Source: an uncultured delta proteobacterium
GTDB taxonomy: Bacteria; Desulfobacterota; Binatia; Binatales; Binataceae
NCBI GenBank assembly: GCA_963842085.1
Contig: CAWJET010000001.1
Span: 896,001-960,000, forward strand
Length of the DNA stretch: 64,000 bases
Direction: 5' to 3'
The notes under the pieces are model-generated. The model was not told where the DNA came from. It saw nothing but the letters and a program-made list of their open reading frames with translations, and did not search any database. Positions 19,899 through 43,813 of the stretch are shown piece after piece (the stretch's first letter is position 1; each line of letters begins with the position of its first letter). A program made the position numbers and the translations under genes.

Positions 19899-20234
19899 AT
19901 GGCGCTTATCAAGTCAAAGAGCCCGAAAATCAAAGCGCTCCACGAGGTGGGGCGCTACGCCGTCGGCGTGCAATGGGTTGACGGCCACGACAGCATTTTT
20001 CCGCTGGACAACTTGCGCCGCGGATGTCTGTGCGACGCTTGCAAGGGCAGCGTGAACGGCGAGGTGCCGCCTGCGAGCGTGCGCATGCGGCAGCTTTCGC
20101 GACTGGGCGAGGCGGCGGTGTTTATCGGATGGGCGGACGGGCACGAGACTATCTACACGATGCCGCAACTCAGAAGTCTCTGCCGATGCGCACACTGCGT
20201 GGCGGAGCCTGAACGCCCGATCACCGGCGGTTAG
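19899..20234 (+). CDS. DUF971-type Zn-binding protein with tandem motifs
   Basis: Two W.DGH..I....LR..C.C..C repeats. Confidence 0.78.
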   Translation: MALIKSKSPKIKALHEVGRYAVGVQWVDGHDSIFPLDNLRRGCLCDACKGSVNGEVPPASVRMRQLSRLGEAAVFIGWADGHETIYTMPQLRSLCRCAHCVAEPERPITGG

Positions 20235-26758: not shown

Positions 26759-26769
26759 GATTTTGCTCC

Positions 26770-27228
26770 TTAGCGGCGGGTTTTGAGGCCGAAGAATAGC
26801 GGGCCCGACCAGCGCGCGCCGGTTATGATGCGTGCAACCTCGGAAAGTGACTTGTATCGTTTGCTGCGAAAGAGGATCCCGTCTTCGAGCACCTTGGCCT
26901 GATGGGTGACTCCGCCCCATTCGCGCACCAACAAGGTTCCGGCTCTAGGACGTAGGATCGGACGGTGCGGTGAGGGTCGAGTGGTCGCTGGATTGTTGGC
27001 GGCCTGCATGAGATGGCGGCGGACGGAAGGCTTGAGTGCGCTGTGTGCATTCTCCTGCATTCGGTGGGCAACCGCCGCGATCAGCAGAGAGCGGTGAATC
27101 TGCTGCGGGGGCTTCGTGCCATAGAGATTGCGCCAGCAGTCCTTCAGCTCGTCGTCGCCTCGCCTTTCCAGATCCTTCAATTCCTGTGCGAGTTTTTCGG
27201 ATTTGACGTCCGATACCATGCGCTTCAT
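26770..27228 (-). CDS. DUF2924 domain protein
   Basis: GTLLVREWGGVTH, YKSLSEVARIITGARWSGPLFFGL; directly upstream of the recombinase. Confidence 0.88.
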   Translation of the reverse strand: MKRMVSDVKSEKLAQELKDLERRGDDELKDCWRNLYGTKPPQQIHRSLLIAAVAHRMQENAHSALKPSVRRHLMQAANNPATTRPSPHRPILRPRAGTLLVREWGGVTHQAKVLEDGILFRSKRYKSLSEVARIITGARWSGPLFFGLKTRR

Positions 27229-27505
27229 AGCCAGTGATTTAACCCTTCCTATACACACACACATTGCTCGATTCGCGCCGTGTAGCCAGTCCTAGGAGGG
27301 GTTCACCTCGCGTTTGTCTGATGCGATTTCGCTGGCCCATTCGCCTTCCAATCGCCACCATCGTGCGGACCGTTGATGCGCGCCCAATAGCCGGCTTCTC
27401 CCTTTCCGCGCGAATGATGCTGGGAAATGGGGAAAACGCTCGCTTCACGCGCCGACCAGAGCAAACATCCCGACGAGCCCTTATGGCTCAAGGAGATTCA
27501 GAAGA

Positions 27506-27787
27506 ATGGAACACGCGAAACTGGCGAAGGGAAGCGGGCATAAACTGCCGATCGGACACTCTCAATCATCGGTCCGGAAGAAAGCTGACCGGAAAAAGAC
27601 TGAATCCGAACGGTCGCTCCGGAAGGAGACCGGCAGCAAGTCGAAATCAGAGAAACTGGTTTGCCGCTATTGCGGGAGCGGTGACCTGGCGCCGAGTTTC
27701 ATCAAGCGGCGGGATCGCCGCTGCCGCAAGTGTTTTAGTAAACGCTATGGATCGGCACGTGCGACTAAGACGAAGCTCAAGAAGTAG
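27506..27787 (+). CDS. Small basic Zn-ribbon protein
   Basis: AGGAG RBS; CRYC...CRKC; Lys-rich. Confidence 0.65.
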   Translation: MEHAKLAKGSGHKLPIGHSQSSVRKKADRKKTESERSLRKETGSKSKSEKLVCRYCGSGDLAPSFIKRRDRRCRKCFSKRYGSARATKTKLKK

Positions 27788-27810
27788 TTTTGGCACCGAC
27801 TTGAGGCGAA

Positions 27811-27840
27811 GGGCCGGCTCGAAGAGCCCGGCCCCTTTTC
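27811..27840 (+). terminator. Rho-independent terminator
   Basis: GGGCCGGCTC...GAGCCCGGCCC hairpin followed by TTTT. Confidence 0.6.
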
Positions 27841-28069
27841 GTTCAGAGCTACATCTGAAGACCATGCTGACTGACAAATGCTCTAGATCCACAACCGCCC
27901 GACTACGGAATCGGGCGGGCAACAATCGAGATGACGGACCGCTCGAACTTACGCATGCTGGCGATTCAACGACGGCCAATCTCAAAACTCTTGACTTTTC
28001 CCCGCGTTCTGAGCTTTTGCAAGCCAGCGGTGGCAAGGGGCCTTGGTTGGTGTTTTGCCCCCGCTTTGC

Positions 28070-28126
28070 ACCTGTGTGTGGCGAATTACTGATTTCCCCA
28101 GAATCAGCAATTCGCCACGCACAGGT
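28070..28126. repeat. Palindromic element copy 1
   Basis: ACCTGTGTGTGGCGAATTACTGATT-TCCCCAG-AATCAGCAATTCGCCACGCACAGGT. Confidence 0.92.
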
Positions 28127-28251
28127 AGCGATACAGAGGTAAACCCTGCCGCCAAGCGCGCCAGGAAGTCCGCGCAGGCTAGCGCGGATTGAGTTTTTAG
28201 AAGCCAAAGGACCAATTTGTGATGACTCGCGGACGCCGACAACGGAACTCG

Positions 28252-28659
28252 CTACCGGAGATCGACTTTGTGGCGGTGAAGAAGTATCGCCGCGCCCCAG
28301 CTGAAAGCGAAAGCAAAAATGACATAGACAGTGTCAAAGATCATCTCGCTCTGCGAAGCCGGCGGTGGATTCCTCGCCGAAAAAAGCACCAGGTTGAGCG
28401 TGACGTAGATCGCATATGCGTAGCCGAGGTACATCGCATAGCGGCGCATCCGCCAGATCCCGGCCGCATAAATCAACAGAACAATTCCCAGCAGCGGCCC
28501 AAGGATCGCATCCGGTGTGCCGCTCAGCCGTTGGCCAAAAAAGACCAGGCCCGTGGTCGGACCCTCGAGATGAAGCGGCTTCAGGATGTCGGTTGATGCG
28601 AGAATTGCGAACAGGACCGCCAAGGTTGTCAGCATTCCGCCACGCCTGGAATCAGCCAT
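28252..28659 (-). CDS. Hypothetical membrane protein
   Basis: About four hydrophobic helices. Confidence 0.7.
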   Translation of the reverse strand: MADSRRGGMLTTLAVLFAILASTDILKPLHLEGPTTGLVFFGQRLSGTPDAILGPLLGIVLLIYAAGIWRMRRYAMYLGYAYAIYVTLNLVLFSARNPPPASQSEMIFDTVYVIFAFAFSWGAAILLHRHKVDLR

Positions 28660-28816
28660 CGCATGACCCTCTGCGGGTATCGATCTAATATGTTCCAAGC
28701 GGCAGCGATAGCCCCCGGCCAACCCGGTACGGACTCCAGCAGGAATGCCTTTTATTCGGGCCGAACAGCGCACCAAACACGGGCTGAATTGCGCCCTTCT
28801 AATCCTGAAGGTTCTC

Positions 28817-28844
28817 GGGGGTTCGAATCAGCCTCTCCCAGCCA
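28817..28844 (+). other. Degenerate tRNA (Gln-like) 3'-end fragment
   Basis: GGGGGTTCGAATCAGCCTCTCCCAGCCA. Confidence 0.5.
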
Positions 28845-29222
28845 GCGGGCACGAACCCTCCTCGCCGCTACCCGGGTTGCCGCCTCGTAACAGGTACCAC
28901 ACAGGTACCACCGGCCGCCCGGGGTCGGCGCGCGCACCGATGCGCAGACTCCACGCCAGGCGTGGTTTCTGGGGTGCGAACCGGGACAATGGGAAAGAGG
29001 CGGTCGATGGAGAGTCGCGGTTGTGCTAGCGTCCCGCGACGGAGGGTCGGACAATGGCGAGCGCCATAACTGATCCGGTCGCGCCGGCGCCACCGCGCTC
29101 ATCGCCGTTTCGGTTTCGAAAAGAAGCGCGTGCGGACATCCCGGGGTTCCTCACCAAGTGAGCCGAGCTCCGTGGAGTCGCACAGTACTGTCGCGCACCT
29201 TCGTCGCGTACCTGGTGACTCC

Positions 29223-30083
29223 ATGAAAGATACCAATCGAAACATCGAGGGCAAGACTTGCCTCATAACAGGCGCCACAAATGGGATCGGGCGCGTTACC
29301 GCCGTGGAATTGGCCAGGATGGGAGCGGAATTGTTCCTGACCTACCGGGACCAGGCGCGTGCCGATGAGACAGTTGCCGAGATACGAAAAAAAACTGGCA
29401 ACGACAAAATTCATCTTCTTCACGCCGATCTAGGGTCGCAGAAGCAGATTCGCGGTGTAGCCGCGGAGTTCCTGGCCACGGGAAAGCCGTTGCATGTGCT
29501 GGTCAACAACGCCGGTCTGGGCAACACAAAGAGAATCATGACCGAGGACGGGATCGAGATGGTGTTCGCGGTCAACCATCTCGCTTACTTTCTGCTGACC
29601 ATCCTCCTGCTCGACCGAATCAAGCAGAGCGCGCCGGCGCGCATTGTGAACGTCGCCTCAGATGCGCACCGGTTCGGAACGATCAATTTCGACGATCTGG
29701 GCGGCGAGCGGCGTTACAGCATGTTCGGCGCGTATGGCCAGTCGAAGCTGGCCAATATCCTCTTCAGCTATGAACTGGCGAGGCGGTTGGGAACCGGCGT
29801 AACGGTCAACTGCCTCCATCCGGGCGGTATCGCCAGTGGGCTGTGGGCCAACAACGGGCCGTTTGCTCGGTTCATCATGAAGGCTGGAACGCTTTTTCTT
29901 AAAACACCGGAGCAGGGTGCAGAAACTACGATCTATTTGGCCTCCTCGGCCGAGGTCGAAGGCGTCACCGGAAAGTACTACGCCAACTGCAAGGAGAAGA
30001 CTTCCAACAAGGAATCGTACGACCTGGATGTCTCTAGGCGGCTGTGGGAGGTCAGTTCGCGGATGACGGGAGTCGGCGCGTAA
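29223..30083 (+). CDS. Short-chain dehydrogenase, retinol dehydrogenase-like
   Basis: TGATNGIG, NNAG, YGQSK. Confidence 0.9.
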   Translation: MKDTNRNIEGKTCLITGATNGIGRVTAVELARMGAELFLTYRDQARADETVAEIRKKTGNDKIHLLHADLGSQKQIRGVAAEFLATGKPLHVLVNNAGLGNTKRIMTEDGIEMVFAVNHLAYFLLTILLLDRIKQSAPARIVNVASDAHRFGTINFDDLGGERRYSMFGAYGQSKLANILFSYELARRLGTGVTVNCLHPGGIASGLWANNGPFARFIMKAGTLFLKTPEQGAETTIYLASSAEVEGVTGKYYANCKEKTSNKESYDLDVSRRLWEVSSRMTGVGA

Positions 30084-30230
30084 GGGGGCCCGGGTAAAGG
30101 CGTCCGTCACCTGACCCGCCATTCAGTTGGCGGTCGGATTATTCGTCAAGCCAAGTCAGCGCCGACGATGGAGGGCATCGTGTCCGATGTTTTCGCGGCG
30201 CTACATTCTCGCCGCTGGGAGGTAAACCCA

Positions 30231-30440
30231 ATGTTCAAGAGCAGATTCATCCGCGACAGCCGCGGTTCGCTGGTTGGAAGGATCGACGACGACGATCACG
30301 GCTCTCGTGCGTTCGACTCACGCGGCAGCTACGTCGGGCGTTACGATCGCAAATTTGATCACACGTATGACAATACCGGCCGGCTCGTCACGATCAGCGG
30401 CGATGCGCTCTCATCCTTAATTTTCGGTCGTAAGCGCTGA
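30231..30440 (+). CDS. Small hypothetical protein with repeated DSRGS beta-hairpins
   Basis: GGAGG RBS; RDSRGSLVGR / FDSRGSYVGR / YDNTGRLV. Confidence 0.6.
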   Translation: MFKSRFIRDSRGSLVGRIDDDDHGSRAFDSRGSYVGRYDRKFDHTYDNTGRLVTISGDALSSLIFGRKR

Positions 30441-30549
30441 CCCCGAAAAACCGGAACATCTTGACCTGTGGATTCAACTGGTAATGTCGAGGAACCGGCT
30501 GTCCACTAATCAGCGACAAAATGACGCCGCAATCGTGGAGCGTCGCTCC

Positions 30550-30870
30550 TCACTTTTGCACCGCCGGTCCGTAGTCTCCCACGCGACGACTGAAGCTCCG
30601 TGCGACTGCTTCGTGCGCTGATTCGGTTTCTGGCGGCACTCTCAGAAGGTGACGTCGCGCACCTCCGTCTGGGTCGGCGGTCGCATTGATCACCTCCAGC
30701 ATGAGAAGAGGCTCGTAATCGTTGAACTGAATTCGCCGGAGCCGCCCGAAACCATCCTCTTGCACGAGTCGCCCTTTGGCTGCCGCCAGGAAACACTCGT
30801 GACCCAGCATTTCGATTGTCGCCTGTACGACTTCAAGGCTCTCATCCAGCGGCAGGTCTTCCAGCCCGAC
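30550..30870 (-). pseudogene. DUF6745-like C-terminal fragment
   Basis: EPLLMLEVINATADPDG..RRHLLRVPP...AHEAVARSF; N-terminus missing. Confidence 0.55.
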
Positions 30871-30982
30871 TTCGTTGGGATGCATCACCTGTTCGGCGAA
30901 TTCAAAAAGCGCCGGGCAATAAGTTATATTTGGCCCTGGCGCCGGATTATCCTTGCGCCGCAATTCCCAAGGAGTTCGTACC

Positions 30983-32410
30983 ATGCCCAAGGCAGCCAGC
31001 AAGCAGCAAGAGCCCTCCGGACCTTTTGGGGATATGTTCCCCTATCGCGAAACCTTCGAGACCTACCACGAACTACCCAAGAAGGGCCGCCCGCACGAGG
31101 AGATCATGCGCAAGTTGCGCAGCATCGCGCGCCAGGAGGACGCGCGCTGGCAGAGCGGCCAGATCTCGGGCACTTACTTCCACGGCGGGATGGAGCACTA
31201 TGCCTACCTCAACCGCGTGTTCGCGCTCTTCTCGCACGTCAACCTGCTGCACCGCGACATGTGCCCGAGCGGCACCAAATTCGAGGGCGAGATAATCGCG
31301 ATGACCGCCCGGATGCTGGGCGCGGAGCTCGCGCGCGAGAACGACCCGCAGGCCGACGTATGCGGGGCGATCACTTCGGGCGGCACCGAGAGTGTCATCC
31401 TGCCGATGCTGGCGTATCGGGAGAAAGCCAGGGCCGAGCGCGGGATCACGGCGCCCGAGATGGTGGCGCCGGAGACGATTCATCCGGCGTTTTCCAAGGG
31501 CGCGCATTTTTTCGGCATCAAGTTGATTCGCGTGCCGGTCGGAGCCGATTACCTGGCCGACGTGGACGCGATGCGGCGCGCGATCGGGCCCAACACCATC
31601 GCGATTGCGGGTTCGGCAGCGAATTTCCCCCACGGGTTGATCGATCCGATCGAGAAGTTGTCCGAGCTGGCGCTTGAAGCCGGCGTCGGCCTGCATGTCG
31701 ATAGCTGCTTCGGCGGTTTCATCCTGCCGTGGATCGCAAAGCTCGGTTACGATGTTCCGGCGTTCGACTTCCGCCTGCCTGGCGTCACCTCGATGTCCTG
31801 CGATACGCACAAATGGGCTTACGGGCTCAAGGGCGCGTCGGTCGTGCTATATCGCAATCGCGCGTTGCGCCGGCGCATGTACTTCACAATGAACGACTGG
31901 CAGGGCGGGTTGTATGCGGCGCCCACAGTGGCGGGCACGCGCTCGGAGGGAATCAGCGCGTCAACCTGGGCGGCGATGGTCACGCTCGGCGAGGAGGGCT
32001 ACCTGAAGGCGACCCGCAGCATCATGAAGGCTGCTGACACGATCAAGGCGGGAGTCGCAAAAATCCCGGAGCTCAAGATTATCGGCAAGCCGACCTACTG
32101 CATCGCGATTACGTCAGACAAGGTGGACATCCGCCACGTCCACGATTTCCTCGTGGACCGCGGATGGCGGCTTAACGGGCTGCAGCGGCCCGCCGGCTTT
32201 CATATGTGCGTCACCTTGCTCCAGACAATTCCGGGGTTGGCGGCGCGTTTCGTCAGAGACATCACGGCCGGGGTCGAGTATGCGAAGAATCCGCCGGCGA
32301 CGCCCGCGCGCAGCGGCGCGATGTACGCCGGCAGCGCGGCTTCGCTTGACCCATCGATGGTGGATGAACTGATGCTGGCGTATCTCGACGCGAGCGCCGA
32401 AGTCCCGTAA
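30983..32410 (+). CDS. PLP-dependent sphingosine-1-phosphate lyase-like enzyme
   Basis: TSGGTES, LHVDSCFGGF, DFRLPGVTSMSCDTHK. Confidence 0.85.
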   Translation: MPKAASKQQEPSGPFGDMFPYRETFETYHELPKKGRPHEEIMRKLRSIARQEDARWQSGQISGTYFHGGMEHYAYLNRVFALFSHVNLLHRDMCPSGTKFEGEIIAMTARMLGAELARENDPQADVCGAITSGGTESVILPMLAYREKARAERGITAPEMVAPETIHPAFSKGAHFFGIKLIRVPVGADYLADVDAMRRAIGPNTIAIAGSAANFPHGLIDPIEKLSELALEAGVGLHVDSCFGGFILPWIAKLGYDVPAFDFRLPGVTSMSCDTHKWAYGLKGASVVLYRNRALRRRMYFTMNDWQGGLYAAPTVAGTRSEGISASTWAAMVTLGEEGYLKATRSIMKAADTIKAGVAKIPELKIIGKPTYCIAITSDKVDIRHVHDFLVDRGWRLNGLQRPAGFHMCVTLLQTIPGLAARFVRDITAGVEYAKNPPATPARSGAMYAGSAASLDPSMVDELMLAYLDASAEVP

Positions 32411-32823
32411 CCGGGCCGGCTTCCGGGGAGAACGGCCTATGTCGGCGATTCGGCGGATTTGAAAATAGTACGCCAGACAGTCGCGAACGGATTCCGGGCG
32501 AATCCTTTCACTCCCAGCACCGCCGCTTTCCCCCGCGTTCGAGTCTGCGCAATTTACGGCTCCGATGCCAGCAGTAGGGGCACATTACGATCAGAATGAA
32601 TTCAAGAAAAGGAAATCCAGCATCTTTACACCACGGCTTTTCCCTGCTTGTCGGCTGAGATCTCGGTGATCTTGATGTCGACCTTGTCCCGATCAAAATT
32701 GTCTGCCACGCCATCGGTGAGCCGAATTCGCTTTGTGGACGAAGATGACCCATTCGTCGGCCCCTGCATCGGCGCTTGCGTACTAAACCGCGATTCTCCT
32801 TTTACCAGAAAATGAAAAGCCCG

Positions 32824-32914
32824 TGTGTGTGGCGAATTGCTAATTCTGGCACAGGACCTGTGTGTGGCGAATTGCTGATTTTCCACCCAAATCAGCAATT
32901 CGCCACACACAGTT
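32824..32914. repeat. Internally deleted copy (32824-32855) plus palindromic element copy 2 (32856-32914)
   Basis: TGTGTGTGGCGAATTGCTAATTCTGGCACAGG, then ACCTGTGTGTGGCGAATTGCTGATT-9 nt-AATCAGCAATTCGCCACACACAG. Confidence 0.9.
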
Positions 32915-33095
32915 TCCCGCATTGACACAATTCGGGCGCCTTTCATAACTTTCGAGCGATCACATTTCGCACCGTTTGTCACGAGTTCGCACCGCGCCAA
33001 AAGGGGAGAATCAATGGCCCCATCTTCCGAATCGCGGCGCGCACGCGCCGATTTCGATCGATTCTCTGACATCTCCAAAAATCTGGAGACTGAAA

Positions 33096-33125
33096 TGTGG
33101 AGAGGGGCGGGTTCGAACCCCCGGT
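33096..33125 (-). other. Degenerate tRNA 3'-end-like fragment
   Basis: Minus strand ACCGGGGGTTCGAACCCGCCCCTCTCCACA. Confidence 0.5.
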
Positions 33126-33419
33126 GCCGCGAGGACCGATACGGGTGAAATTCGGCCCGAGCTTGGCGCACTATTTGGCCCCGAATAAAAGCATCCGTGC
33201 TGGAGAGAATTTGTTCGCCTTGGATTCGGCTCTGCTTCGGAGCTCTCGGGTTCCCTTCGTTCGTCAGGCGAATGCGAGGAATTGGGCGATGCAGAGCATA
33301 CGGCGAAGGCTCGGGGTCAAATCTCCCCTTAGCGAGCTGGCAGACAGATGTTTGTGCTGGATTGCAGAGTTCTGATTGGCCGACTCGGGAGGTCCACCAC
33401 ACAGGTCCGGTCAGGGTAA

Positions 33420-34739
33420 CTACAACTCTTCGCGGGCGCGTCTCGCCATGTAGGCCAGGCCCGCGCGCACCGCCACTCCCGACACGGGCTCGGGCGGAAT
33501 CCAGGACGGTCCGGGCAGCCGCCGCATGTCCTCAAGGAGGGCCGAATCTGCTCCCACGGCGAGGTCGGCGAGCAACTGTCCCGCGATGGTTCCCAGCGCC
33601 ACTCCCACGCCGTTGTAGCCCGCGGCCACAAACAACTTGTCATCAAGCTCCCCGAAGAAGTGCGCTCTGTTCAGCGAAATGCCGAGCACACCGCCCCATG
33701 TGTACTCCAAGTCCACGTCCGGCAGCATCGGAAAGCGCGCGCGGAAGGCGCACCGATGCCCCTCGCATACGTGTCTCCGCTGCGCCTCGTGAACCTCGAG
33801 GGATCGGGAGTAGATCACGCCGTTGCGAATGAGGATGCGGCCGTCGCGCGTCTTCCTGACGGTTGTACCCATCGTCTCTTCCGGCACGAGCCCCCACTCT
33901 GGCTCGCCCCCGAGGGCGCGCAGTTCCGCGTCGTTGAGGCGGCGCGTCAGGCTCGCAAACGTCAGCATCGGCAGTATGCGGCTCCTCAGCAGGCCGAGCC
34001 CGGCGGTGTAGCCATTTGTCGCCACGAACACGCGCTCCGCCGCTATGGTGCGGTCGCGAGTTTCGATCATAAGCTTTCCGTCCAGGCGCTGAATGCCGCG
34101 CACCGGGCACTCCTCATACAGCTCGACATTGGCGGGCAACGTGGCTGCCAGCCCGCGAATGAGTGCGGCGGGCTGCACCAGCACGGTCCCGCGGGTGTGC
34201 ACAGCAGCATGGTAGTGGGCTGTGCCGGTGATCGCCGTCATCGCAGCAGCATCGAGCTTCGTGTAGGGTTCGTCCATCGCGTCGAGGCCGGCGCAGAACG
34301 CGTCGAGGGCGCGCCTTCCGACGTCGCCGACAGCGCCGTGCAAACGGCCGCATTCCGCCCATTCGCACTCGATCGCTTGTGCGCGCACGAGCGTTCGGAG
34401 CGCGTCTTGGCCGGCGCGCTCCAACCGTACCAGGCGTCGGTTTTCCTCGACACCCCGCCGCGGTTCGTAGTGTGGAAGGTCAACCACGAATCCGGAGTTG
34501 CGACCCGAGGCGCCAGCGCCAACGCGCTGTGCCTCGACCACGATGATCCGCCAGTCTGGCCGATGCGCAGCCAACTGGCGCGCCACGGCGAGGCCGGTAA
34601 AGCCGGCGCCGATGACCGCGGCTTGCCCGTGCTGATTCGAGAGCAGGTGCCGCGGCGGCGCGGGAGGCGGAAGCAACGCCAGCCAGCCGCAGCCGTTATC
34701 GTCGGCAGGCAATCCGCGCGTGCGCCAGCTGCTCGTCAC
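33420..34739 (-). CDS. FAD-dependent oxidoreductase, PuuB/OrdL-like
   Basis: IGAGFTG, GASGRNSG, GYNGVG. Confidence 0.85.
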   Translation of the reverse strand: MTSSWRTRGLPADDNGCGWLALLPPPAPPRHLLSNQHGQAAVIGAGFTGLAVARQLAAHRPDWRIIVVEAQRVGAGASGRNSGFVVDLPHYEPRRGVEENRRLVRLERAGQDALRTLVRAQAIECEWAECGRLHGAVGDVGRRALDAFCAGLDAMDEPYTKLDAAAMTAITGTAHYHAAVHTRGTVLVQPAALIRGLAATLPANVELYEECPVRGIQRLDGKLMIETRDRTIAAERVFVATNGYTAGLGLLRSRILPMLTFASLTRRLNDAELRALGGEPEWGLVPEETMGTTVRKTRDGRILIRNGVIYSRSLEVHEAQRRHVCEGHRCAFRARFPMLPDVDLEYTWGGVLGISLNRAHFFGELDDKLFVAAGYNGVGVALGTIAGQLLADLAVGADSALLEDMRRLPGPSWIPPEPVSGVAVRAGLAYMARRAREEL

Positions 34740-34997
34740 TCTTAACCCCGGGCGGTACGAGCTTACTTTACATAACACCAAGCTCAAGCGGCTATATCGT
34801 GGTCGATCACCGAACGGCGCGGCAGCGTTAAGTTGCGCAGAGCGTCAGATGGCCGGACCAAGTTTTGAGAAGCGACAGGGATTGACCTTCGATAACGATG
34901 TTGCCCGTTGGCGAGCCGAGTAAATCGGTCGCAATTTATAGTGTTTCAAGTCGCGTCGGCAAATTTTTGCGGAGGAAAATTCGCGGATGCTCTCGCC

Positions 34998-36698
34998 TCA
35001 GGCGCCGTGGCCGTGGCGCAGCAGCCGCCCCGTCGATGCGCCCGTCTGCTCACCGTCTCGCATATTGATTTCGCCGTTGACCATGATGTACCGATAGCCG
35101 TCGGACTTGCGCACGCGACGCCATTCGCCGCCGGGCAAGTCGTGCGCAATTTCCATCGGCCGCACCGCCAACTTCTCATAGTCGTAGATGACGATGTCCG
35201 CAGGCGCGCCCTCGCGGATTACTCCGCGATCGCTGAATCCAGCGCACATAGCGGGCAGCGCGCTCAGTCGCCAGTGCGCGTCCTCGAGACTCAGCATTTT
35301 GTGCTCGCGCACGAGCGACGCTAGAAATTCAGTCGGGTACTGCCCACCGGTGAAGAACTTCGTATGTGCGCCACCGTCAGAAACGCCGGGAATCAGATAC
35401 GGATAATCGATCATCTCTTTCATGTAGTCCATGTTCTGGTTGGGTCCCGGCGCGTAAAACTCGGTCCGAAGCTCGTCCGCGACCGCAAGATCAAGCATCG
35501 CGTCCACCGGATGCTGGCCGGTGCGCTCGCCGAACTCACGCAGCGTGAGGCCTTCATATTCTTTCATGTCATCGCGCGTGACCTGAGTGACGAAAATCTG
35601 ATCGAACTCCTCGGTGATGACACGCGGCAGGTGGCTGCGAAGCGCCTCGCGCCGGGCGGGATCGGCCAGCTTCGCCTTGCGTTCGGCGCAAGTGCCGGTG
35701 GTGGCGTCGCACCACGCCTGGCATTCGTCGAACAGGTTCCAGTCAACGAACGTGAACGCCATCCCGGTATCGGCGGTGACGGCTTGCCCATAGACGGGAA
35801 TCCCACGCTGGCGGCAACTCTCAAGCCACTGAATTTGCCCGCGATGCACGTAGGGATGCGAATCGCGCGGCTGCACGACGTTGTAGAGCACCGGCCGCCC
35901 ACTTAGCGTGGCAAGCTGCTCGAAGTGATTTAGATCGTGCATCGGATCGGCACTCACCAGCGTCATCTGGATGAAGCCCTCGTTGCGCTGGCCGAGCACG
36001 CGGGCCAGCGCGAGGCAGGTCTCGTCGGCCATCAGGTCGGAAACCATCGGCGTGCCGTCAAAGTCGCGCTGTACGCAAGCAGGCCCATTCGGATCGAGAC
36101 GCTGCGCGGACCATCCGCATGCGCCGGCGTCCATCGCCTCGTCCAAGAGGTGGCAGATCTCGCGCGTTTCCCGCTCGGTAGGCGGTCGCGTCTTGGCCGC
36201 TTCCAGGCCCATCACCCACGTCAGCAGCGGCGAAACCGGAACGTACGGCAGGATGTTCACCGCCTTGGGATGGCGTTCGATGCTGTCGAGAAATTCGGGA
36301 AACGTGATCCAATCCCACGGCATCCCAGCCTTCATCGAAGCATATGGGATCGCCTCCACGCGCGTCATCGTAAGCATCGCCCGCTCGCGGCCATCGGGAC
36401 GCACCGGCGCGAAGCCGAAGCCGCAGTTGCCGATTACGACCGACGTGACACCGTGCCAACTCGAGATCGAGCAGTATGGATCCCAGAACAACTGCGCATC
36501 GTAGTGGGTGTGCAGATCGACAAAGCCCGGCGCTACGATCAAACCCGAAGCATCGATGGTTTGTCCGCCGTCGGTCGAGCGCAGCCGACCGATTTTCGCG
36601 ATGCGACCGTCCTTGATGCCGACGTCGCCGCGCAACCGCGGCATCCGTGTTCCGTCCACGACCATTCCATCGCGAATGACAAGGTCGAACTCCGCCAT
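34998..36698 (-). CDS. N-acyl-D-amino-acid deacylase family amidohydrolase
   Basis: PGFVDLHTHYD, GNCG, SDGGAH. Confidence 0.88.
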   Translation of the reverse strand: MAEFDLVIRDGMVVDGTRMPRLRGDVGIKDGRIAKIGRLRSTDGGQTIDASGLIVAPGFVDLHTHYDAQLFWDPYCSISSWHGVTSVVIGNCGFGFAPVRPDGRERAMLTMTRVEAIPYASMKAGMPWDWITFPEFLDSIERHPKAVNILPYVPVSPLLTWVMGLEAAKTRPPTERETREICHLLDEAMDAGACGWSAQRLDPNGPACVQRDFDGTPMVSDLMADETCLALARVLGQRNEGFIQMTLVSADPMHDLNHFEQLATLSGRPVLYNVVQPRDSHPYVHRGQIQWLESCRQRGIPVYGQAVTADTGMAFTFVDWNLFDECQAWCDATTGTCAERKAKLADPARREALRSHLPRVITEEFDQIFVTQVTRDDMKEYEGLTLREFGERTGQHPVDAMLDLAVADELRTEFYAPGPNQNMDYMKEMIDYPYLIPGVSDGGAHTKFFTGGQYPTEFLASLVREHKMLSLEDAHWRLSALPAMCAGFSDRGVIREGAPADIVIYDYEKLAVRPMEIAHDLPGGEWRRVRKSDGYRYIMVNGEINMRDGEQTGASTGRLLRHGHGA

Positions 36699-36788
36699 GG
36701 CTCAACCTCCGTACAGCTAATATTCAAGATTACCGCGTCTGCTCACAAGTCGCACCGCCCGCCCGCTGTGTCAATGAAAATGGACGCT

Positions 36789-37250
36789 CTAAGCGTACGG
36801 GCCAAATCGCTCGAAGTCGTCTCGGGTGCCACTCCGAAACCACTCGAGTTCCAATTTCTTTCTGGCAGCATGCTCGATGGCGAGTGCACAGATCGTGACG
36901 ACCTGGGCAACGCCGCGAGCACGAGCTTCCTGCTTGAGATGCTCGAGCGCGAGTCTGACGGAGTTCCACTCGCTTTGATCGTCAACCATAAGTCAGCGAT
37001 TTGAAGCGTCAGGCCGCCAGGATCATAGACTTCCAGTAAGCGTTGGGACGGCGAAGCCGCGAATCTTGCGGGCACTTTCGTCCACCGCCGCAATGACGCG
37101 TTTCGCGCACAGCCGTGCTTTGAAGAACATTGCCTTCAATCTCTGCTGCTGCTTTCCTGCGCAAGACCTGGGTTCGAGCCGGCTCACCCGCGCTTGCTTT
37201 CTGAAGTCCTCCTGGATTACGCGTTTATTCTGAGTTCTCAGCTCGCGGCC
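36789..37250 (-). pseudogene. Frameshifted GNAT acetyltransferase remnant
   Basis: Pieces in different frames: IAAVDESARKIRGFAV / VYDPGGLTLQIADLW / LEHLKQEARARGVAQVVTIC. Confidence 0.5.
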
Positions 37251-37401
37251 GCTCGACAACTTGCCGCGCAAGCTATGGTGAACCCTTGATCTGTGCTATG
37301 GCTGTGACCGCGAGCCATGCCATCGGAAGTGCTACTGGGGTGGCGCACCTTCGAAGTCTCGTCGAAGACCGCGGATCAATCCACACTGGGGAGGTAGATT
37401 G

Positions 37402-38097
37402 ATGGCTCATGAATTCATTCTGAAATCGTTGGTCGACGGTCTCGAGAATATGGCCGGCGACTTTGAGAAATTCGCGGTCCTTCTCAACCAGCGGGCGGAG
37501 GTTTACGGCTTTTCGATTCGCTTCAAGCCCACGCCGTATCACACGCCCAGGGCACCGAACTATCCGAGTAAAGAAGAATCGTTGGCGAGAGCAGCTGATT
37601 TTGAAGAGAAGATAGCCGACAACTATGGTCTGGTAGTTTCGTACTTTCGAATTCAATCAGACCCGCCTGCCACGCTGAGTCCGGAGTCATACGGCGAAGA
37701 TGGCCTGTTGCACCTGATAACTTCATGGCAGGGACTGTGCGCGGGAGTCTTCAAAGCGACTCTGAATCTGTACGGAGAAAAGCCTCTCCCGCCGCCACCC
37801 GCGTCCCAGCCCGGCGCCGCCTCGGAATTGAGATTGTGCGCCGAGATCGCTGCGTGGCTCGAGAAAATTGCCGCCGATTCGACTCTATTTTCGGCCAGTC
37901 AAGAGCTTTCGGAGGCGAGCAAGTCGAGATCGAAGAAGATCAACCCAGCTCCGGTTCTCAACTCTCTTGCGCGCCTGGAACAAGCTTTTCACAGAACGAC
38001 TTCGAATGCCCTACTGGTCGCCAACAAGTTACCGCATCATCTTTACCGGGCCGCTCACAAAAATTACGGAGCCACTTCCAAGAAAACGCCCCGGTGA
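37402..38097 (+). CDS. Hypothetical protein
   Basis: 231-aa ORF with GGAGG RBS; no recognised motif. Confidence 0.6.
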   Translation: MAHEFILKSLVDGLENMAGDFEKFAVLLNQRAEVYGFSIRFKPTPYHTPRAPNYPSKEESLARAADFEEKIADNYGLVVSYFRIQSDPPATLSPESYGEDGLLHLITSWQGLCAGVFKATLNLYGEKPLPPPPASQPGAASELRLCAEIAAWLEKIAADSTLFSASQELSEASKSRSKKINPAPVLNSLARLEQAFHRTTSNALLVANKLPHHLYRAAHKNYGATSKKTPR

Positions 38098-38235
38098 TTG
38101 CGTCGAGCCCGTTCATCGAAGGAGCGGATTCCCCTATCATTGGGTGCCGTGCTTCGTGCACCGGCGAAGGGCTGAGCGGCTTGCGCATCGTGGCCCTTGA
38201 GGTTGCCTGATCTGGTTCTCAAGGAATACGCGTCA

Positions 38236-41200
38236 ATGAAAGAAGTTTCGCCTACACGCACAGCGGTCTCTGATTCAATGCCGGCCATTCACCCCCATAG
38301 TGCATTCGTCGGACGAGCGCGCGAATCCGAGATTCTGCGCTCCGCGGTGACCGGCCTGCTTGCGGGACGGGGTGGGTTGGTCATGCTCGCCGGAGAGCCC
38401 GGCATCGGCAAGACTCGCCTCGCCGAAGAATCCGCAAATTACGCAATCGCCAAGGGCTCGCGGGTAATATGGGGACGATGCTGGGAGGGTGGGGGCGCGC
38501 CGGCGTTCTGGCCGTGGATTCAACTGATTCGTGAAAGCGTTCACGCCTTTTCAGATTCGATGCTCGCTGAGGCAGGTTCCGGACTCAGCTGTATTGCCCA
38601 AATGGTTCCGGAACTGCGCTTGTCAACCGCCGCAGTGGAACCCGGCCGCAATCCCGTTTCAGCATGGCCGCTCGCTGAAGACTCGATGGCAGCGGGGCCC
38701 GAACGCTTCCGTCTTTTCGACGCCGTCACGGCCCTTTTCAAACAGCTTGCGGCGAACACACCGTTGATGATGGTGCTCGACGACCTTCATGCAGCCGACG
38801 AAGACTCACTCATGCTGCTGCGGTTTCTAGCGCGCGATTTGAAACAGACTCATATCCTGATGGTCGCCACTTATCGCGAGGTCGAATTACGGCAGTCGAG
38901 GGCGCATTCCACGTTGCTTTCGGAGATTAGCCGTGAGGGCAGCACCATTCTGCTTCGGGGTCTCAGCGTCGATGAAGTAGCGGATTTCATCGGACTCAAC
39001 TCCAGACTCGGAGCGGATGAATCGACTGTCTCCTCGCTCTATCATGCGACCGACGGAAATCCGTTTTTCCTCGACGAGATCGTCCGTTTGATTGTTGCCG
39101 AGCGCAACCTTGGTCACTCGATCAGCCTCGATTCAGGTTTTACTGTCCCGGACTCGGTCCGAACGATCATCCGGCGGCGTATCGCGCCGTTTGCAGAGCA
39201 AACGAAATCCGTCATGACGATCGCGTCGTTGATAGGAAAGGAATTTGACCTCGCCTTGCTCGCAGAGGTTACCGGAATTAGCATTGAGCAGCTTATCGAG
39301 TCACTCGAACAGGCCGCGGCTAATTCTCTAATTGTGGAAGTGACGGAAACATTCGGATGCTACCGTTTCGCTCACGAGGTCATCCGGGAAACGCTGCGCA
39401 CCGAGCTCGGCAAAACCGCAAGCGCGCGGCTTCATCAGCGGATCGCAGCCGCAATCGAAGAGCTGAATTCCAGGGACCTCGAGCCACACCTCGCTCGGCT
39501 CGCTCATCACTACGTTGAAGCGCTCCCGCTCGGGACGGCGGCAAAGGCTGTTGAATACGCCCGCCGGGGGGGCGAGCGCGCTCGCAAAGAATTGGCATTC
39601 GCGGAAGCGTCGCGTCTCTACGCGATCGCGCTCCGGGCGCTGGACTCCGTGCCGAGACGCGATGAGGTACAGCGCTGCGAAGTGCTGCTCGCGATGGGTG
39701 AAACCCAGGCCCAGGGCCGAAGCCTGAGGGAGGCGAGGCACAGCTTCGAGCGAGCTGCCGATATCGCTCGCAACTTGGGCCGAACAGATCTGCTGGCGCA
39801 AACCGCACTGAGCCTGAGCGCATGGTTCGGTGGCTTTTTCAACAAGGGTCGGCCACTGATCGGGGTCATCGCGGAAGTGCTGTCTTCGATGGATCCCGGC
39901 GACACTGCGGTTCGCGCCACACTGACTGCCAAGCTTGGCGGCGAGCACTACTGGACTGGTGAGCGCGAAAAGGGCCTGTCTCTTTGCCAGGAGGCCGTGG
40001 CAATGGCACGGCGGATCGGGGACCCTCGCGCGCTCGTTTCGGCGCTCTGGGATCGCAGTCAGATCAGTTGGGGCCCCGAAAACGTGGAAGGTCGTCTCGC
40101 GACCGCGACCGAGATCGCCACACTGGCCGAATCGATCGGCGATTATCAATGCGCGCTGAGGGCGCGCGAAATGCGGTTTACCGCGTTGCTCGAAATCGGC
40201 GATATGGCAGGAATCGACGCAGAAGTGCGCGCCTACGCGGCACTTGCTGAGAAATCTGGCGAGCAGTTCGGAATCGTTGAAAGATTTCACGCCGCGCTTG
40301 CCCTATCGAGAGGGGACTTCGAACTGGCCGAGCGGAAGACGCGAGAATTGTCGCGGCACGCTCAGAGAAGGCAGGACCCGGCCTTACTTGCATGCGCCAG
40401 CTACCTCACGGAAATCTTGGGCCGCGAGCGCGACGGGATCGATCTGGCGCAGTTTGAGGGGCTTCGAAAAGCGAGGATCGCGCGGTCTTTGACTACCGCT
40501 GCTGTGTTCCGAATTGAGTTGGCCATCTTTTTCACGGCTATCGGGCGGCGGGCCGAAGCTCTGGCTGAGATGGGGTCTCTCGAAAGAAACAACTTCGCCG
40601 CTATTCCGCGCGACTGGAACTGGCTCTACAACATGTGCGGTCTCGCGACCCTGTGCGTAGGTCTGCGCGACGCTCAACGCGCCGCTGCCGTTTACGAACT
40701 TCTTCTTCCCTACGCCAATCGCAATGTAACTGCGGGCTGGGGCGATCTAGCTTACGGTTGCTCGAGTCGATTCCTGGGCATGTTGGCAGGGGTGATAGAT
40801 CGGGCCAACGATGCGCAAGCTCACTTCGAGCAGGCTTTGGAATTCGATGATCGCATGGGATCCCGACCCTGGGCCGCTTACGCGCGATACGAATATGCCC
40901 GGGTGCTGCTAAATCGGGGCAACCAGGGCGATCTTGAACACGCACTCAAGCTGCTCACAGAAGCTCGGGAAATCACGTCCGCCATCGGGATGAAGCCGCT
41001 CGGGGGGCGCGTCAACTCGCTCATCGCCAAGGCCCAGGCACCCAAATCGAATCTCGCGGCCGCAACCGCCCGGCCACCAGCCGGCGCGAATACGGGCGAA
41101 CATTCGCAGCGCGTCATTGCCACGATTCTCTTCATCGACATCGTCAGCTCAACCGAGCACGTCACCGAGCTAAAGGACCGGCGATGGGTTGAACTCCGTG

Positions 41201-41595
41201 CCCGCTTTTTCGAGAGCGTCCGCAAAGAACTTGCGAGTTTCGGGGGACGCGAGATCAACACGGCCGGCGACGGGATGTTCGCGATATTTGATCGGCCGGA
41301 CACCGCGATTCATTGCGCGTTCGCGATGTCGGACGGCGCGCAGAAGATCGGCCTGCAGATAAGAGCCGGCATTCACACCGGCGAATGCGAACTGGTCGGC
41401 GGTGATGCTGTCGGCATCGCGGTACATATCGGCGCGCGGGTCGCCGGCTGCGCCGCCGCGACCGAGGTGATGGTTTCAAGCACGGTAAGGGATTTGTTGG
41501 CCGGCGGCGATATATCATTCACCGACCGGGGCAGCCGTGTGCTGAAGGGGATTCTGGGCGAGTGGCGGCTCTACGCTGTCCAGCCGATAGAATAG
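38236..41595 (+). CDS. STAND ATPase-TPR protein with C-terminal class III nucleotide cyclase (start uncertain)
   Basis: GEPGIGKT, VLDDLH, GNPFF, helical repeats, then ILFIDIVSST..EINTAGDG..RAGIHTGE..VHIGARV. Confidence 0.88.
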   Translation: MKEVSPTRTAVSDSMPAIHPHSAFVGRARESEILRSAVTGLLAGRGGLVMLAGEPGIGKTRLAEESANYAIAKGSRVIWGRCWEGGGAPAFWPWIQLIRESVHAFSDSMLAEAGSGLSCIAQMVPELRLSTAAVEPGRNPVSAWPLAEDSMAAGPERFRLFDAVTALFKQLAANTPLMMVLDDLHAADEDSLMLLRFLARDLKQTHILMVATYREVELRQSRAHSTLLSEISREGSTILLRGLSVDEVADFIGLNSRLGADESTVSSLYHATDGNPFFLDEIVRLIVAERNLGHSISLDSGFTVPDSVRTIIRRRIAPFAEQTKSVMTIASLIGKEFDLALLAEVTGISIEQLIESLEQAAANSLIVEVTETFGCYRFAHEVIRETLRTELGKTASARLHQRIAAAIEELNSRDLEPHLARLAHHYVEALPLGTAAKAVEYARRGGERARKELAFAEASRLYAIALRALDSVPRRDEVQRCEVLLAMGETQAQGRSLREARHSFERAADIARNLGRTDLLAQTALSLSAWFGGFFNKGRPLIGVIAEVLSSMDPGDTAVRATLTAKLGGEHYWTGEREKGLSLCQEAVAMARRIGDPRALVSALWDRSQISWGPENVEGRLATATEIATLAESIGDYQCALRAREMRFTALLEIGDMAGIDAEVRAYAALAEKSGEQFGIVERFHAALALSRGDFELAERKTRELSRHAQRRQDPALLACASYLTEILGRERDGIDLAQFEGLRKARIARSLTTAAVFRIELAIFFTAIGRRAEALAEMGSLERNNFAAIPRDWNWLYNMCGLATLCVGLRDAQRAAAVYELLLPYANRNVTAGWGDLAYGCSSRFLGMLAGVIDRANDAQAHFEQALEFDDRMGSRPWAAYARYEYARVLLNRGNQGDLEHALKLLTEAREITSAIGMKPLGGRVNSLIAKAQAPKSNLAAATARPPAGANTGEHSQRVIATILFIDIVSSTEHVTELKDRRWVELRARFFESVRKELASFGGREINTAGDGMFAIFDRPDTAIHCAFAMSDGAQKIGLQIRAGIHTGECELVGGDAVGIAVHIGARVAGCAAATEVMVSSTVRDLLAGGDISFTDRGSRVLKGILGEWRLYAVQPIE

Positions 41596-41699
41596 ATCTC
41601 CAGGTCTCCGGAGGCCAATGGCCTCGCGCGGCTTCTCCGAGCATGACAAGCGCGACGAGGCGAGCGCGACGCACACCGTGCACGCCGCCGCCCCGAATC

Positions 41700-42629
41700 T
41701 CACATGAGTTGGAGTTTTGCGCAGGCACAAGGTTCCTCGCGATGGCACTGAAACTGACCTGTGTCTGGCGAATTGCTGATTCTGGGAAAATCAGTAATTC
41801 GCCACACACAGGTGAATTTCGGCTCCCGGCGCTGCAAAAACGCCTGCAGTCCTTCTTGACGGTCCCGGCTTATCTCCTGCGGATGGGTGAATAGGATGTA
41901 TTCCCGTTCATCTACACGGACTTTGTTGTCCGTTGTCTTGTAGTGCCCGTACTTGACCGACTTGATGTAAAGCGGCGGAATCTTCTTGAGCAAGTCAGCC
42001 CAGCGGATCGCCTCGTCCATCACCTGCTCATCCGCAACGACCCTGTTGACCAGCCCGACCTCATAGGCGCGCTGCGCGTCCATGATCTGCCCGCCATTCC
42101 AAGCTAGCAGCATGAACTCGAGGCTGATCTTGAAGGGCATATAGGGAAGATACTCCACCGGTGGGATCGGCGTGCCAATCCGTGCTTCCGGAAAACCCAT
42201 CAGCGTGCTCTCGCCGGCGATCGTAATGTCGCAGCCGCGAACCGCGAGCGCATAGCCGGCCCCCAGCGTGTAGCCCTTGATCGCGCCGACGATCGGCTTG
42301 AACACGGTGATGCCGTTCTGCGGATAGCCTTGATGGACTTGAAATGGCACTTCGCGATCGATCGCACCGGGGCTCACGTCCGCGCCGGCGCAGAAATGCT
42401 TGCCAGCGCCGGTGAGGATGGCGACTTTGGCGGCAGGGTCGGCCTCGAACCGTTTCCAGGTTGCGCACAAGGCGTCACTGAGCGCGCCGTTGAGCGCGTT
42501 GACCTTTTCTGGCCGATTCAACGTGATGAAGGCGATTTGATCCTTCACCTCATAGAGCAGCACATTCTCTGACTTCGCCGCCTTGAGCTTGGCGTTGCGC
42601 TTCTCCTGCGCGCTCAACACACTAGCCAT
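41700..42629 (-). CDS. Enoyl-CoA hydratase/isomerase with C-terminus interrupted in frame by the palindrome
   Basis: ITLNRPEKVNAL, FCAGAD; ends REPKFT-[CVWRITDFPRISNSPDT]-GQ... Confidence 0.85.
   Translation of the reverse strand: MASVLSAQEKRNAKLKAAKSENVLLYEVKDQIAFITLNRPEKVNALNGALSDALCATWKRFEADPAAKVAILTGAGKHFCAGADVSPGAIDREVPFQVHQGYPQNGITVFKPIVGAIKGYTLGAGYALAVRGCDITIAGESTLMGFPEARIGTPIPPVEYLPYMPFKISLEFMLLAWNGGQIMDAQRAYEVGLVNRVVADEQVMDEAIRWADLLKKIPPLYIKSVKYGHYKTTDNKVRVDEREYILFTHPQEISRDRQEGLQAFLQRREPKFTCVWRITDFPRISNSPDTGQFQCHREEPCACAKLQLM
41757..41813. repeat. Palindromic element copy 3
   Basis: ACCTGTGTCTGGCGAATTGCTGATT-CTGGGAA-AATCAGTAATTCGCCACACACAGGT. Confidence 0.92.
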
Positions 42630-42860
42630 GGCGTCTCTCCTCTGATTGGTCACGCGGCCTCAGCGCCTCCACCGCCGTCTCTGCGATCGGATCTGCCGGA
42701 TTGGTGTAAACCGGGATCTTCACTTCGAAACTTGATTCAGACTCGCACCGGTACCGGGCGGTTTGCAAACGCGCATACGAAAAGGCGCCTCCCCCCGGGC
42801 GCCGGGAGGGGCTGGTTTCGCATCTCGCGGCCGCGCAACGCATTCATTCGACGGTCAGCT

Positions 42861-42917
42861 TGGTGTGTGTGGCGAATTGCTGATTCTGGGAAAATCAGCA
42901 ATTCGCCACACACAGGT
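42861..42917. repeat. Palindromic element copy 4
   Basis: TGGTGTGTGTGGCGAATTGCTGATT-CTGGGAA-AATCAGCAATTCGCCACACACAGGT. Confidence 0.92.
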
Positions 42918-43716
42918 CGGAAGCGAATTTAAATATACCGTCAAGGCTGGCGATACCCTGGTCAGCATCGGCGCTCGTAGTGGAATCGAGAGCGGGACGC
43001 TGGCAGCAATGAACGGACTCAAACCAAGGACAGCCTTGAAGCCGGGTCAGGTGCTTTACATCGACAACCGCCACATCGTTCCGGCGGATTTGCCCGATGG
43101 CATTCTGGTCAATCTGCCGCAGCGAAAACTGTTCTTACTGAATGGCGGCAAGGTCCAGGGAAATTATCCGATTGGTCCGGGTAAGGCTGCCTTCGCTACG
43201 CCAATCGGCAGCTTCGCGGTTATTCAGATGCGCGAGAACCCGACCTGGTATGTACCGAAATCGATCCAGGACGAATGGGCGCGAGCAGGCAAGGTGGTCA
43301 AGAAGACCGTTCCACCCGGCCCTAACAATCCATTAGGCGGTTACTGGATCGGACTGAGCTTTCCGTCGTACGGGATTCACGGCACGAATGCTCCGCTCTC
43401 GATCTATGACTTTCAGAGCCGGGGTTGTATTCGGATGCATCCCGATGACGCGGGCGCGCTGTTCCGGCAGGTGAAAGTCGGCCAGCCTGGAGAGATCATT
43501 TATGAGCCCGTGTTGATGGCGCAACTCCAGGACGGCGAGATCCTTCTCGAAGTGCATCGTGATCCGTACAGAAAGAAGAGCAAGGACGCACTGCAATTTG
43601 TCCGCGACTTGGCCGCCGCCAACAATCTGGAACAACAGATCGATTGGAGGAAGACCACGGAGGCAATATCCCGCAACGACGGCGTAGCCCGCGAGATCAG
43701 TGCGATCACCCACTGA
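42916..43716 (+). pseudogene. LysM + L,D-transpeptidase (YkuD/ErfK family) lacking its signal peptide
   Basis: YTVKAGDTL LysM, PGPNNPLG, YGIHGT, SRGCIRM; recognisable homology starts at the palindrome. Confidence 0.78.
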
Positions 43717-43813
43717 TGATCCGCGGCCCCGCGTCGTCTCGTCTGCGCTTGGAATCGTCTGAGCATCGCCCGGTGGAAGTCCGCACTTAAGCGGGACCGT
43801 CGCTGTGCGAAGA

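Follow-up and report, generated by a model that had tools for sequence, protein, structure and literature searches.

The window analysed here is a 64,000-nucleotide stretch (C1:896001–960000) of G000, a complete genome in two contigs (C1, 3.24 Mb; C2, 1.69 Mb). It carries four near-identical palindromes of 51–53 bp, none of them assigned a strand, and one 34-nt fragment; these palindromes, together with the insertion sequence (IS) whose ends they share, are the subject of this work. Copy 1 (28073–28123, 51 bp) has the C-rich spacer TCCCCAG and the flanks ACC^GGT, where ^ marks the junction, and copy 2 (32859–32911, 53 bp) has a 9-nt spacer and the flanks ACC^GTT. Copy 3 (41760–41810) has the G-rich spacer CTGGGAA and the flanks ACC^GGT and lies 8 nt ahead of the native stop codon of an enoyl-CoA hydratase gene, and copy 4 (42864–42914), also with a G-rich spacer and oriented like copy 3, is flanked by TGG^GGT. 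The arms are 22 nt each and start with TGTGTGTGGCGAATT, and the spacers of copies 1 to 4 measure 7, 9, 7 and 7 nt. An earlier description of this DNA made without database searches (the sequence-only reading) had reported these four positions, arms, spacers and flanks, all of which were confirmed, as was the opposite orientation of the copy 1 spacer relative to copies 3 and 4; copy 2 sides with copy 1, the C-rich pair being opposed to the G-rich pair.

A scan of the window with a 17-nt arm motif (up to 3 mismatches) gave 11 matches against 0.13 expected, a number reached in none of 100 shuffles. Nine of the matches correspond to arms, either of the four copies or of the half copy, and the other two (6860 and 63084) are 3-mismatch matches outside the island, which bears out the earlier observation that the core DNA of the window holds no copies. 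Folded as DNA, all four copies form near-perfect hairpins (−22.3 to −29.3 kcal/mol, z −9.2 to −12.4). Strong hairpins that often sit at gene ends might be ordinary structural repeats, either hairpins resembling repetitive extragenic palindromic (REP) sequences and spread by a Y1 transposase of the REP-associated tyrosine transposase (RAYT) type, or terminator-like structures. We regard this as extremely unlikely. Only 13 full copies exist in the 4.9-Mb genome, where they cluster in a few regions or islands, and copies are found inside genes, as 8 nt before the hydratase stop codon, and inside other IS copies. The one candidate for a RAYT-type partner in G000 scores 33 bits as a partial Y1_Tnp match and lies about 180 kb away from the nearest copy, none of the four window copies has a T-run past the stem, and no Rfam family reached its gathering score in window positions 20000–50000 or in L149/L150.

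The origin of the arms is revealed by a longer element on the second contig of G000 (C2:1569086–1570282). This 1,197-bp element is bounded by two inverted half-sites 1.17 kb apart, with TGTGTGTGGCGAATT at both ends, and encodes on the minus strand an rve/rve_3 integrase-core gene that is split into two overlapping frames. Both ends were examined in 13 such elements (12 from relatives and that of G000), which are 1,185–1,200 bp long. In all 13, the end upstream of the gene reads TGTGTGTGGCGAATTGCT(G/A)ATTCTGGC..., that is, the palindrome arm followed by the first spacer bases, and the opposite end reads TGTCTGTGGCGAATTCCAATTCA.... The palindrome arm is the same as the first ~26 nt of the transposase-proximal IS end, and the 51-bp palindrome consists of two inverted copies of that end (about 26 + 25 nt) with no other sequence. 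Since each arm equals the transposase-proximal terminus of the IS, the palindrome is not an orphan recombination site. The 34-nt fragment (32824–32857, plus strand), formerly taken for a deleted palindrome, is instead the beginning of the same full-length IS end, truncated one base before copy 2 and 100% identical over its 34 nt to the IS end in L017, L034, L040, L044, L110 and L148. The intervening base, at position −1 of copy 2 (32858), is C, but G in every intact IS copy compared.

Uninterrupted transposase genes encode a 362-aa protein with HTH_32, rve and rve_3 domains, and relatives in the protein collection are up to 91% identical to the G000 gene over the part compared. When 47 genomes of the genus were searched (E ≤ 1e-40), a transposase was present in 13 including G000, with about eleven matches near full length and free of stop codons; this set and the sets of 24 and 46 genomes used below include G018 and G023, both of which are negative for palindrome and transposase, and no positive claim rests on them. 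The best NCBIfam matches of the transposase are the IS481 model NF033577 (96.3 bits, cut-off 224) and the IS3 model NF033516 (91.1 bits, cut-off 160), neither cut-off being passed. As in the IS481 and IS3 families, the element is a single-gene IS of ~1.2 kb with TGT...ACA termini and a transposase combining a helix-turn-helix (HTH) with an rve DDE domain, and its single open reading frame (ORF), TGT termini and length within ~1–1.3 kb are those of the IS481 type. It differs from IS481 in its score below the cut-off, in an N-terminal region of ~100 aa outside the IS481 model and in its lack of a target duplication, whereas IS481-family members are described as making duplications of 4–15 bp. 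The two-ORF frameshift arrangement of IS3 elements is absent, the intact copies being read through 362 aa without a stop. Among the 72,556 plasmids of PLSDB no close relative of the transposase was found, the best match being 31% identical and annotated merely as an integrase-core protein. Judged from its sequence, the IS is a distantly IS481/IS3-like DDE element represented in none of PLSDB, NCBIfam and Rfam as searched, and no description of it or of the palindrome was found in the literature searched.

Several expectations of the sequence-only reading can be assessed at this point. Its recognition of the TGT...ACA ends as DDE-type, mobile-element DNA is supported by the match to the IS termini, and the longer element with the same ends around a transposase that it proposed to look for exists, in the form of the 1.2-kb IS with its rve-type DDE transposase. 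Its idea of a possibly undescribed minimal mobile palindrome or recombination site survives in part: the element is absent from PLSDB, NCBIfam and Rfam, but its arms are the terminus of an IS and it does not stand alone. Similarly, the outcome that it had named as contrary to this idea, a match of the ends to a catalogued IS or miniature inverted-repeat transposable element (MITE) with regular target duplications, was half realized, as the ends do match an IS, but one that is uncatalogued where searched and shows no regular duplication.

We consider it likely, with a probability of about 0.8, that the palindromes are MITE-like, non-autonomous derivatives of this ~1.2-kb rve-type IS of the window's genus (Candidatus Binatus/Binataceae). 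Palindrome and IS form a system of an uncatalogued DDE IS and its MITE-like derivative, and no new kind of recombination site. The review PMC10969869 covers bacterial MITEs, among them the Correia element and MITEAba12. With the MITEs reviewed there the palindrome shares its small size (<500 bp), lack of coding sequence and multicopy nature (103 distinct copies in different flanks were collected), terminal repeats matching a full-length IS of related genomes, occurrence in genomes without the transposase, and a stable stem-loop. Unlike them, it is only 51 bp long and has no internal sequence, both of its arms come from one IS end, it is neither AT-rich nor confined to intergenic DNA, it has no flanking direct repeats, and it is found at junctions of unrelated DNA and not as simple insertions. 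The palindrome is thus set apart from textbook MITEs by its minimal build, its lack of target duplication and its position at seams.

Searching the genome and its relatives with the consensus, as had been proposed, returned the 13 copies of G000 (nine on C1 and four on C2, in addition to half-sites) and showed at least 26 of 46 genus relatives to be positive, the BLAST matches adding at least 15 genomes to those found by strict pattern. The strict-pattern search detected the palindrome in 11 of 24 sampled genomes of the genus, with 1–20 copies each (0–20 per genome over the sample), and in none of 16 genomes from other families of the class. Within the 24 genomes screened for both, the palindrome was present in 5/5 transposase-positive and 6/19 transposase-negative genomes (E ≤ 1e-40), and among the 46 relatives in at least 11 of the 12 transposase-positive ones. 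This co-occurrence is an association and not a test, because the genomes are kin. The species-representative collection contained exact copies in 53 loci outside G000, 49 of which are titled Candidatus Binatus, Binataceae or unclassified (delta)proteobacterial soil/peat metagenome-assembled genomes (MAGs). Exact copies were also seen on four short contigs (L107, L108, L115 and L142; 3.6–8 kb) binned to Gemmatimonadaceae, Terriglobales, Acidiferrales and Acidoferrum MAGs; these copies outside the phylum could reflect mis-binning or inter-phylum transfer. Seven soil metagenome runs from two studies contain 50% or more of the words sampled from the stretch, and contigs of four runs were examined. 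Relative to nearby unique bins, depth at the element (rows 41779–41784) was roughly 4x in two runs and 30–40x in two runs, and the contigs break inside palindromes and show many differing loose ends at the element edges.

The target was characterized using a flank logo of 167 distinct ends, comprising palindromes and IS copies from G000 and its relatives. Position −3 is a purine in 71%, position −2 is C in 77%, position −1 is C in 68% or G in 25%, and no signal extends beyond −4, giving the consensus RCC^TGTGTG. The dinucleotide next to the end is CC in 97 cases vs GG in 14. The flanks are inverted (RCC...GGY) and not direct, because a duplication would yield equal CC and GG at any one end. 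The ACC^GGT-like sites without consistent target duplication that had been noted in the window are therefore confirmed and general over the 167 ends, and the logo that had been suggested shows RCC outside each end, inverted. In uninterrupted homologues of one flank, the dinucleotide next to the element is already present in the native sequence. Full sites at the junction are seen as GGCC^GGTG in most relatives' hydratase genes, as GTGACC^GGTAGC and GTAACC^GGTCGG at the exact junction in G000, as GCGACC^GGTC in G004, and as AGACC^GGTAC (inside another IS copy) and GGAACC^GGCTAC. A duplication of 2–3 bp was considered and rejected, as it appears in isolated coincidences only; one of them is GCC/GCC in L017, where the two flanks match different native loci. 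A parallel is provided by the Spy transposons of invertebrates, DDE elements that, according to PMC4122938, insert in the middle of the palindrome AAA^TTT without duplication, with verified empty sites. Both are DDE elements with terminal inverted repeats located in the middle of a short palindromic target (here RCC^GGY) without duplication, and they differ in that Spy is eukaryotic, related to IS5/PIF-Harbinger and verified by empty sites, whereas the element described here is rve-type, yielded no empty sites and has both target halves in about a quarter of native homologues.

Nearly all palindrome copies mark seams between unrelated DNA. Homology of the flanks ends exactly at the outer edge of the element: among 210 flank alignments reaching the junction, the subject continues with other sequence in 180 and with the element end in 30. 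Where both flanks matched one replicon, they were more than 478 kb apart in 6/6 cases, and genes or other IS copies are cut at the element boundary. The earlier statement that the copies lie at module junctions and gene ends is supported by these flanks, which map to unlinked loci. The hydratase module (41811–42863, minus strand, 1,053 bp) enclosed by copies 3 and 4 illustrates this: nine relatives have the gene without a copy at these boundaries (one with a copy about 600 bp off), homology begins at the first or second base past copy 3 (41811/41812) and reaches the edge of copy 4 in two relatives, and the outer flanks of copies 3 and 4 are both unrelated. In the same gene, L076 and L080, compared with L075, lack a stretch of 15 nt that contains the hydratase stop codon and is present in six others, and this difference stops exactly at ^GGTGAATTT, the position of window copy 3. 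Copy 2 adjoins the 34-nt IS stump, and in one relative a palindrome lies between the truncated interior of an IS and foreign DNA. That misassembly at a repeat of 51 bp causes the seams was dismissed, G000 being complete in two contigs and showing the same pattern at its own copies. The sequence-only reading had proposed screening reads for inversion or excision between copies; no clean excision, inversion or empty allele was seen in the contigs of four runs, which cannot speak to absence, and a contig joint from 28123 to 32858, present in one run with 50 letters on its shorter side, is like several loose ends indistinguishable from other repeat copies.

Alternatively, the palindromes might not be mobile themselves but be scars made repeatedly by inverted insertion of an IS into another IS end followed by deletion of the rest. 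Insertions of IS copies and palindromes into or beside one another do occur: L021 has one IS copy inside another, the palindrome in L024 is separated from an IS end by 16 nt, and in the window the 34-nt end is one base away from copy 2. Deletions beside the element are common as well. Such an origin is nevertheless improbable: more than 100 copies in many genomes have one architecture, with 22-nt arms, a spacer near CTGGGGA and, in many, the same G/A arm difference, and they lie in different flanks. The shared architecture therefore points to one origin followed by spread, not to independent scars.

The interpretation of the palindromes as MITE-like derivatives must be weighed against a number of observations that do not favour it. 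Target duplication is part of the usual MITE definition according to PMC10969869, and flanking direct repeats, whether of MITE or IS481 kind, are absent here. By our tally, the full RCC^GGY is present in only about a quarter of the native homologues, the rest showing the retained half alone, and two cases have C at position −1 against G in every native homologue, a difference that simple blunt insertion does not account for. Empty ACCGGT sites at orthologous loci, which the sequence-only reading had hoped for, were not found in two-sided form: comparison with G000 and 148 loci gave no filled/empty pair for 103 palindrome copies or for 12 IS copies, composite pairs drawn from 497 end flanks gave no empty site, and neither did genus-wide searches with window 27000–44500, window 41250–43450 and the surroundings of two solitary C2 copies (six G000 copies in all). 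Likewise, L078 compared with L079/L082 showed no two-sided empty site, and scanning metagenomes with the 20 nt to the left of copy 3 yielded two contigs that are unrelated and have nothing but those 20 nt in common with it. As the comparison set has one genome per species, zero empty sites is weak evidence on polymorphism, and because no filled/empty pair was found, the claim of zero duplication rests on the flank statistics. None of 50 inter-copy segments was seen again in a second context bordered on each side by an element end; the listed full-length matches are part of a second, IS1111-type element (see below), caught by the loose end motif. Finally, genome G009 has 20 palindrome copies and no transposase match at E ≤ 1e-40, G000 has four partial transposase matches and no intact gene, and with both arms coming from one IS end, the transposase would have to use two such ends.

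The genomic island of the window also encodes a large serine recombinase (25073–26920) and a DUF2924 protein (26770–27264), both on the minus strand within the feature 25073–27264. The presence of the recombinase, with its Resolvase and Recombinase domains, and of the DUF2924 protein was confirmed. The genome contains about seven such pairs by our grouping, 43–61% identical to the window pair where full length and some of them degenerate, which suggests that G000 has many islands of one type. A palindrome copy lies within ~50 kb at five of these loci, and islands of the serine-recombinase type are where the copies are concentrated. In line with the partnership that had been put forward for this module, the palindrome could be a target of site-specific recombination, through which the large serine recombinase together with DUF2924, or else a tyrosine recombinase, exchanges segments in a cassette-like manner. 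The inverted arms around a 7-nt asymmetric spacer, the position of copies at segment junctions and an array of seven consecutive copies in one orientation in a relative (L046) would fit such a role, but we judge it very unlikely. The IS whose termini form the arms encodes a DDE transposase of its own, the obvious partner for the palindrome, and the relation to the DUF2924/serine recombinase pair is one of co-residence in the same island type only: linkage is loose, as one pair has no copy within 320 kb and three C2 copies have no pair within 50 kb. Homology breaks at the outer edges of the palindrome and not in the spacer, where a crossover would fall, which is not the behaviour of an attachment site. 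Neighbouring copies are mixed in orientation (about 14 same vs 12 opposite by our count), on account of which integron-like directional arrays of the attC kind were dropped, and the best TIGR02249 score for an integron integrase in G000 is 78 bits against a cut-off of 265.

A second element is inserted at the terminus shared by the palindrome and the 1.2-kb IS. A 1,412-bp IS adjoins the left terminus of three palindrome copies of G000 outside the window (C1:550456–551866, C1:3241035–3242446 and C2:1664632–1666049) and is also found in L137, L142 and L148, where it is partial. Its 361-aa DEDD protein scores 342 bits against the NCBIfam model NF033542 for IS110-family RNA-guided transposases (cut-off 140). 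The subterminal inverted repeats of the element are 13 bp long and extended by 7 bp on the left and by 3 bp on the right (TGATGGG+ATGGACCGCTCCC ... GGGAGCGGTCCAT+ATA), and the transposase gene ends at about position 1142 of about 1412 bp, leaving a non-coding region downstream. According to PMC11187229, the IS1111 family is characterized by a DEDD transposase, subterminal repeats of 11–13 bp extended by 7 bp and 3 bp, and a non-coding stretch that follows the transposase gene. The element agrees with this and also has a fixed target: in 6/6 visible right ends (three full G000 copies and three partial MAG copies) it is inserted between the RCC flank and TGTGTG, independent of the palindrome spacer orientation. 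The non-coding region of all three G000 copies contains GCCACACACA, the complement of the first 10 bases of the terminus, between two copies of GAACCTG, which corresponds to the typical left flank plus TG; any 10-nt match arose in 203 of 20,000 mononucleotide shuffles. We infer that the IS1111-type element has a guide RNA, of the seekRNA/bridge-RNA kind, aimed at the RCC^TGTGTGTGG junction. Members of the IS1111 family are described in PMC11187229 as targeting repeats of other elements, with IS4321/IS5075 at the terminal repeats of the Tn21 family, ISPa11 at REP sequences and ISKpn4/ISPst6 at attC. In common with the IS4321/IS5075-like members covered there, the IS1111-type element has a DEDD transposase, 13-bp repeats, target-matching stretches in the non-coding region and an insertion point within another element's terminal repeat that is constant in position and orientation; it differs in that its target is the terminus of the DDE IS and its MITE-like derivative, and in that its guide is predicted from sequence. 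A comparison of L050:3985–4035 (G014) with G000 C1:551664–551814 showed a palindrome at an ACC^GGT site within an IS110-family non-coding region, and thus the two element types insert into each other. A third repeat, of 1,514 bp and 100% identical between its two copies (approximately G000 C1:533291–534804 and C2:1379761–1381274), lies about 0.7–0.9 kb from two palindrome copies and is probably another IS.

Under the MITE-like interpretation, the 51-bp element would be moved in trans, now or formerly, by the 362-aa transposase, and each end would be joined to a new RCC site in separate events, creating the seams. Such an event could be an intramolecular transposition accompanied by deletion or inversion of adjacent DNA, a cointegrate-type fusion, or the mobilisation of DNA between two copies, and the element would on this reading act as the stitching of island cargo. 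The copies of G000 are probably immobile at present, because the genome has only broken transposase genes. A more far-reaching proposal, which we put forward tentatively and consider rather doubtful, is that the ends of the rve-type IS and of its 51-bp derivative are transferred independently beside RCC without a staggered cut, a C sometimes being supplied at the junction. The element would then mainly make seams (deletions, fusions and captured segments) and be the main cargo-stitcher of the serine-recombinase islands of the Binataceae, and the IS1111-type element would have evolved a guide for RCC^TGTGTGTGG.

Other repeated sequences were also noted. Beside the DUF2924 gene, a stretch of ~500 bp (27336–27850) inside an unannotated ORF (27264–28142) has counterparts 79–85% identical to it in many genomes across the genus, frequently two or more in a single genome, and no Pfam or NCBIfam match. 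Another unit, which behaves as a discrete module (30888–32449, 1.56 kb), consists of a gene for a pyridoxal phosphate (PLP)-dependent decarboxylase and flanks of about 65 and 40 bp; it is 90–93% identical in many relatives, occurs twice in several of them, and has a second G000 copy at C2:74666–76142. A further stretch of 150–220 bp (L150:605–821, G000 C2:1306934–1307150) has many copies in every genome of the genus and no Rfam match, and looks like a fragment of coding sequence for the conserved C-terminal part of a large protein family, in a minus-strand ORF.

With these results, an apparently orphan palindrome becomes an identifiable system, consisting of an uncatalogued DDE IS of an uncultured soil lineage and its minimal non-autonomous derivative. 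For transposon specialists, the system offers an rve-type element without target duplication over 167 ends. The putative guide for the terminus of another transposon appears to add a natural example of RNA-guided mobile DNA targeting mobile DNA. The practical value for now is in annotating such hairpins as IS ends and likely rearrangement or assembly breakpoints. For the organisms themselves, the position of the palindromes at seams suggests that the element shapes the assembly of metabolic cargo in genomic islands.

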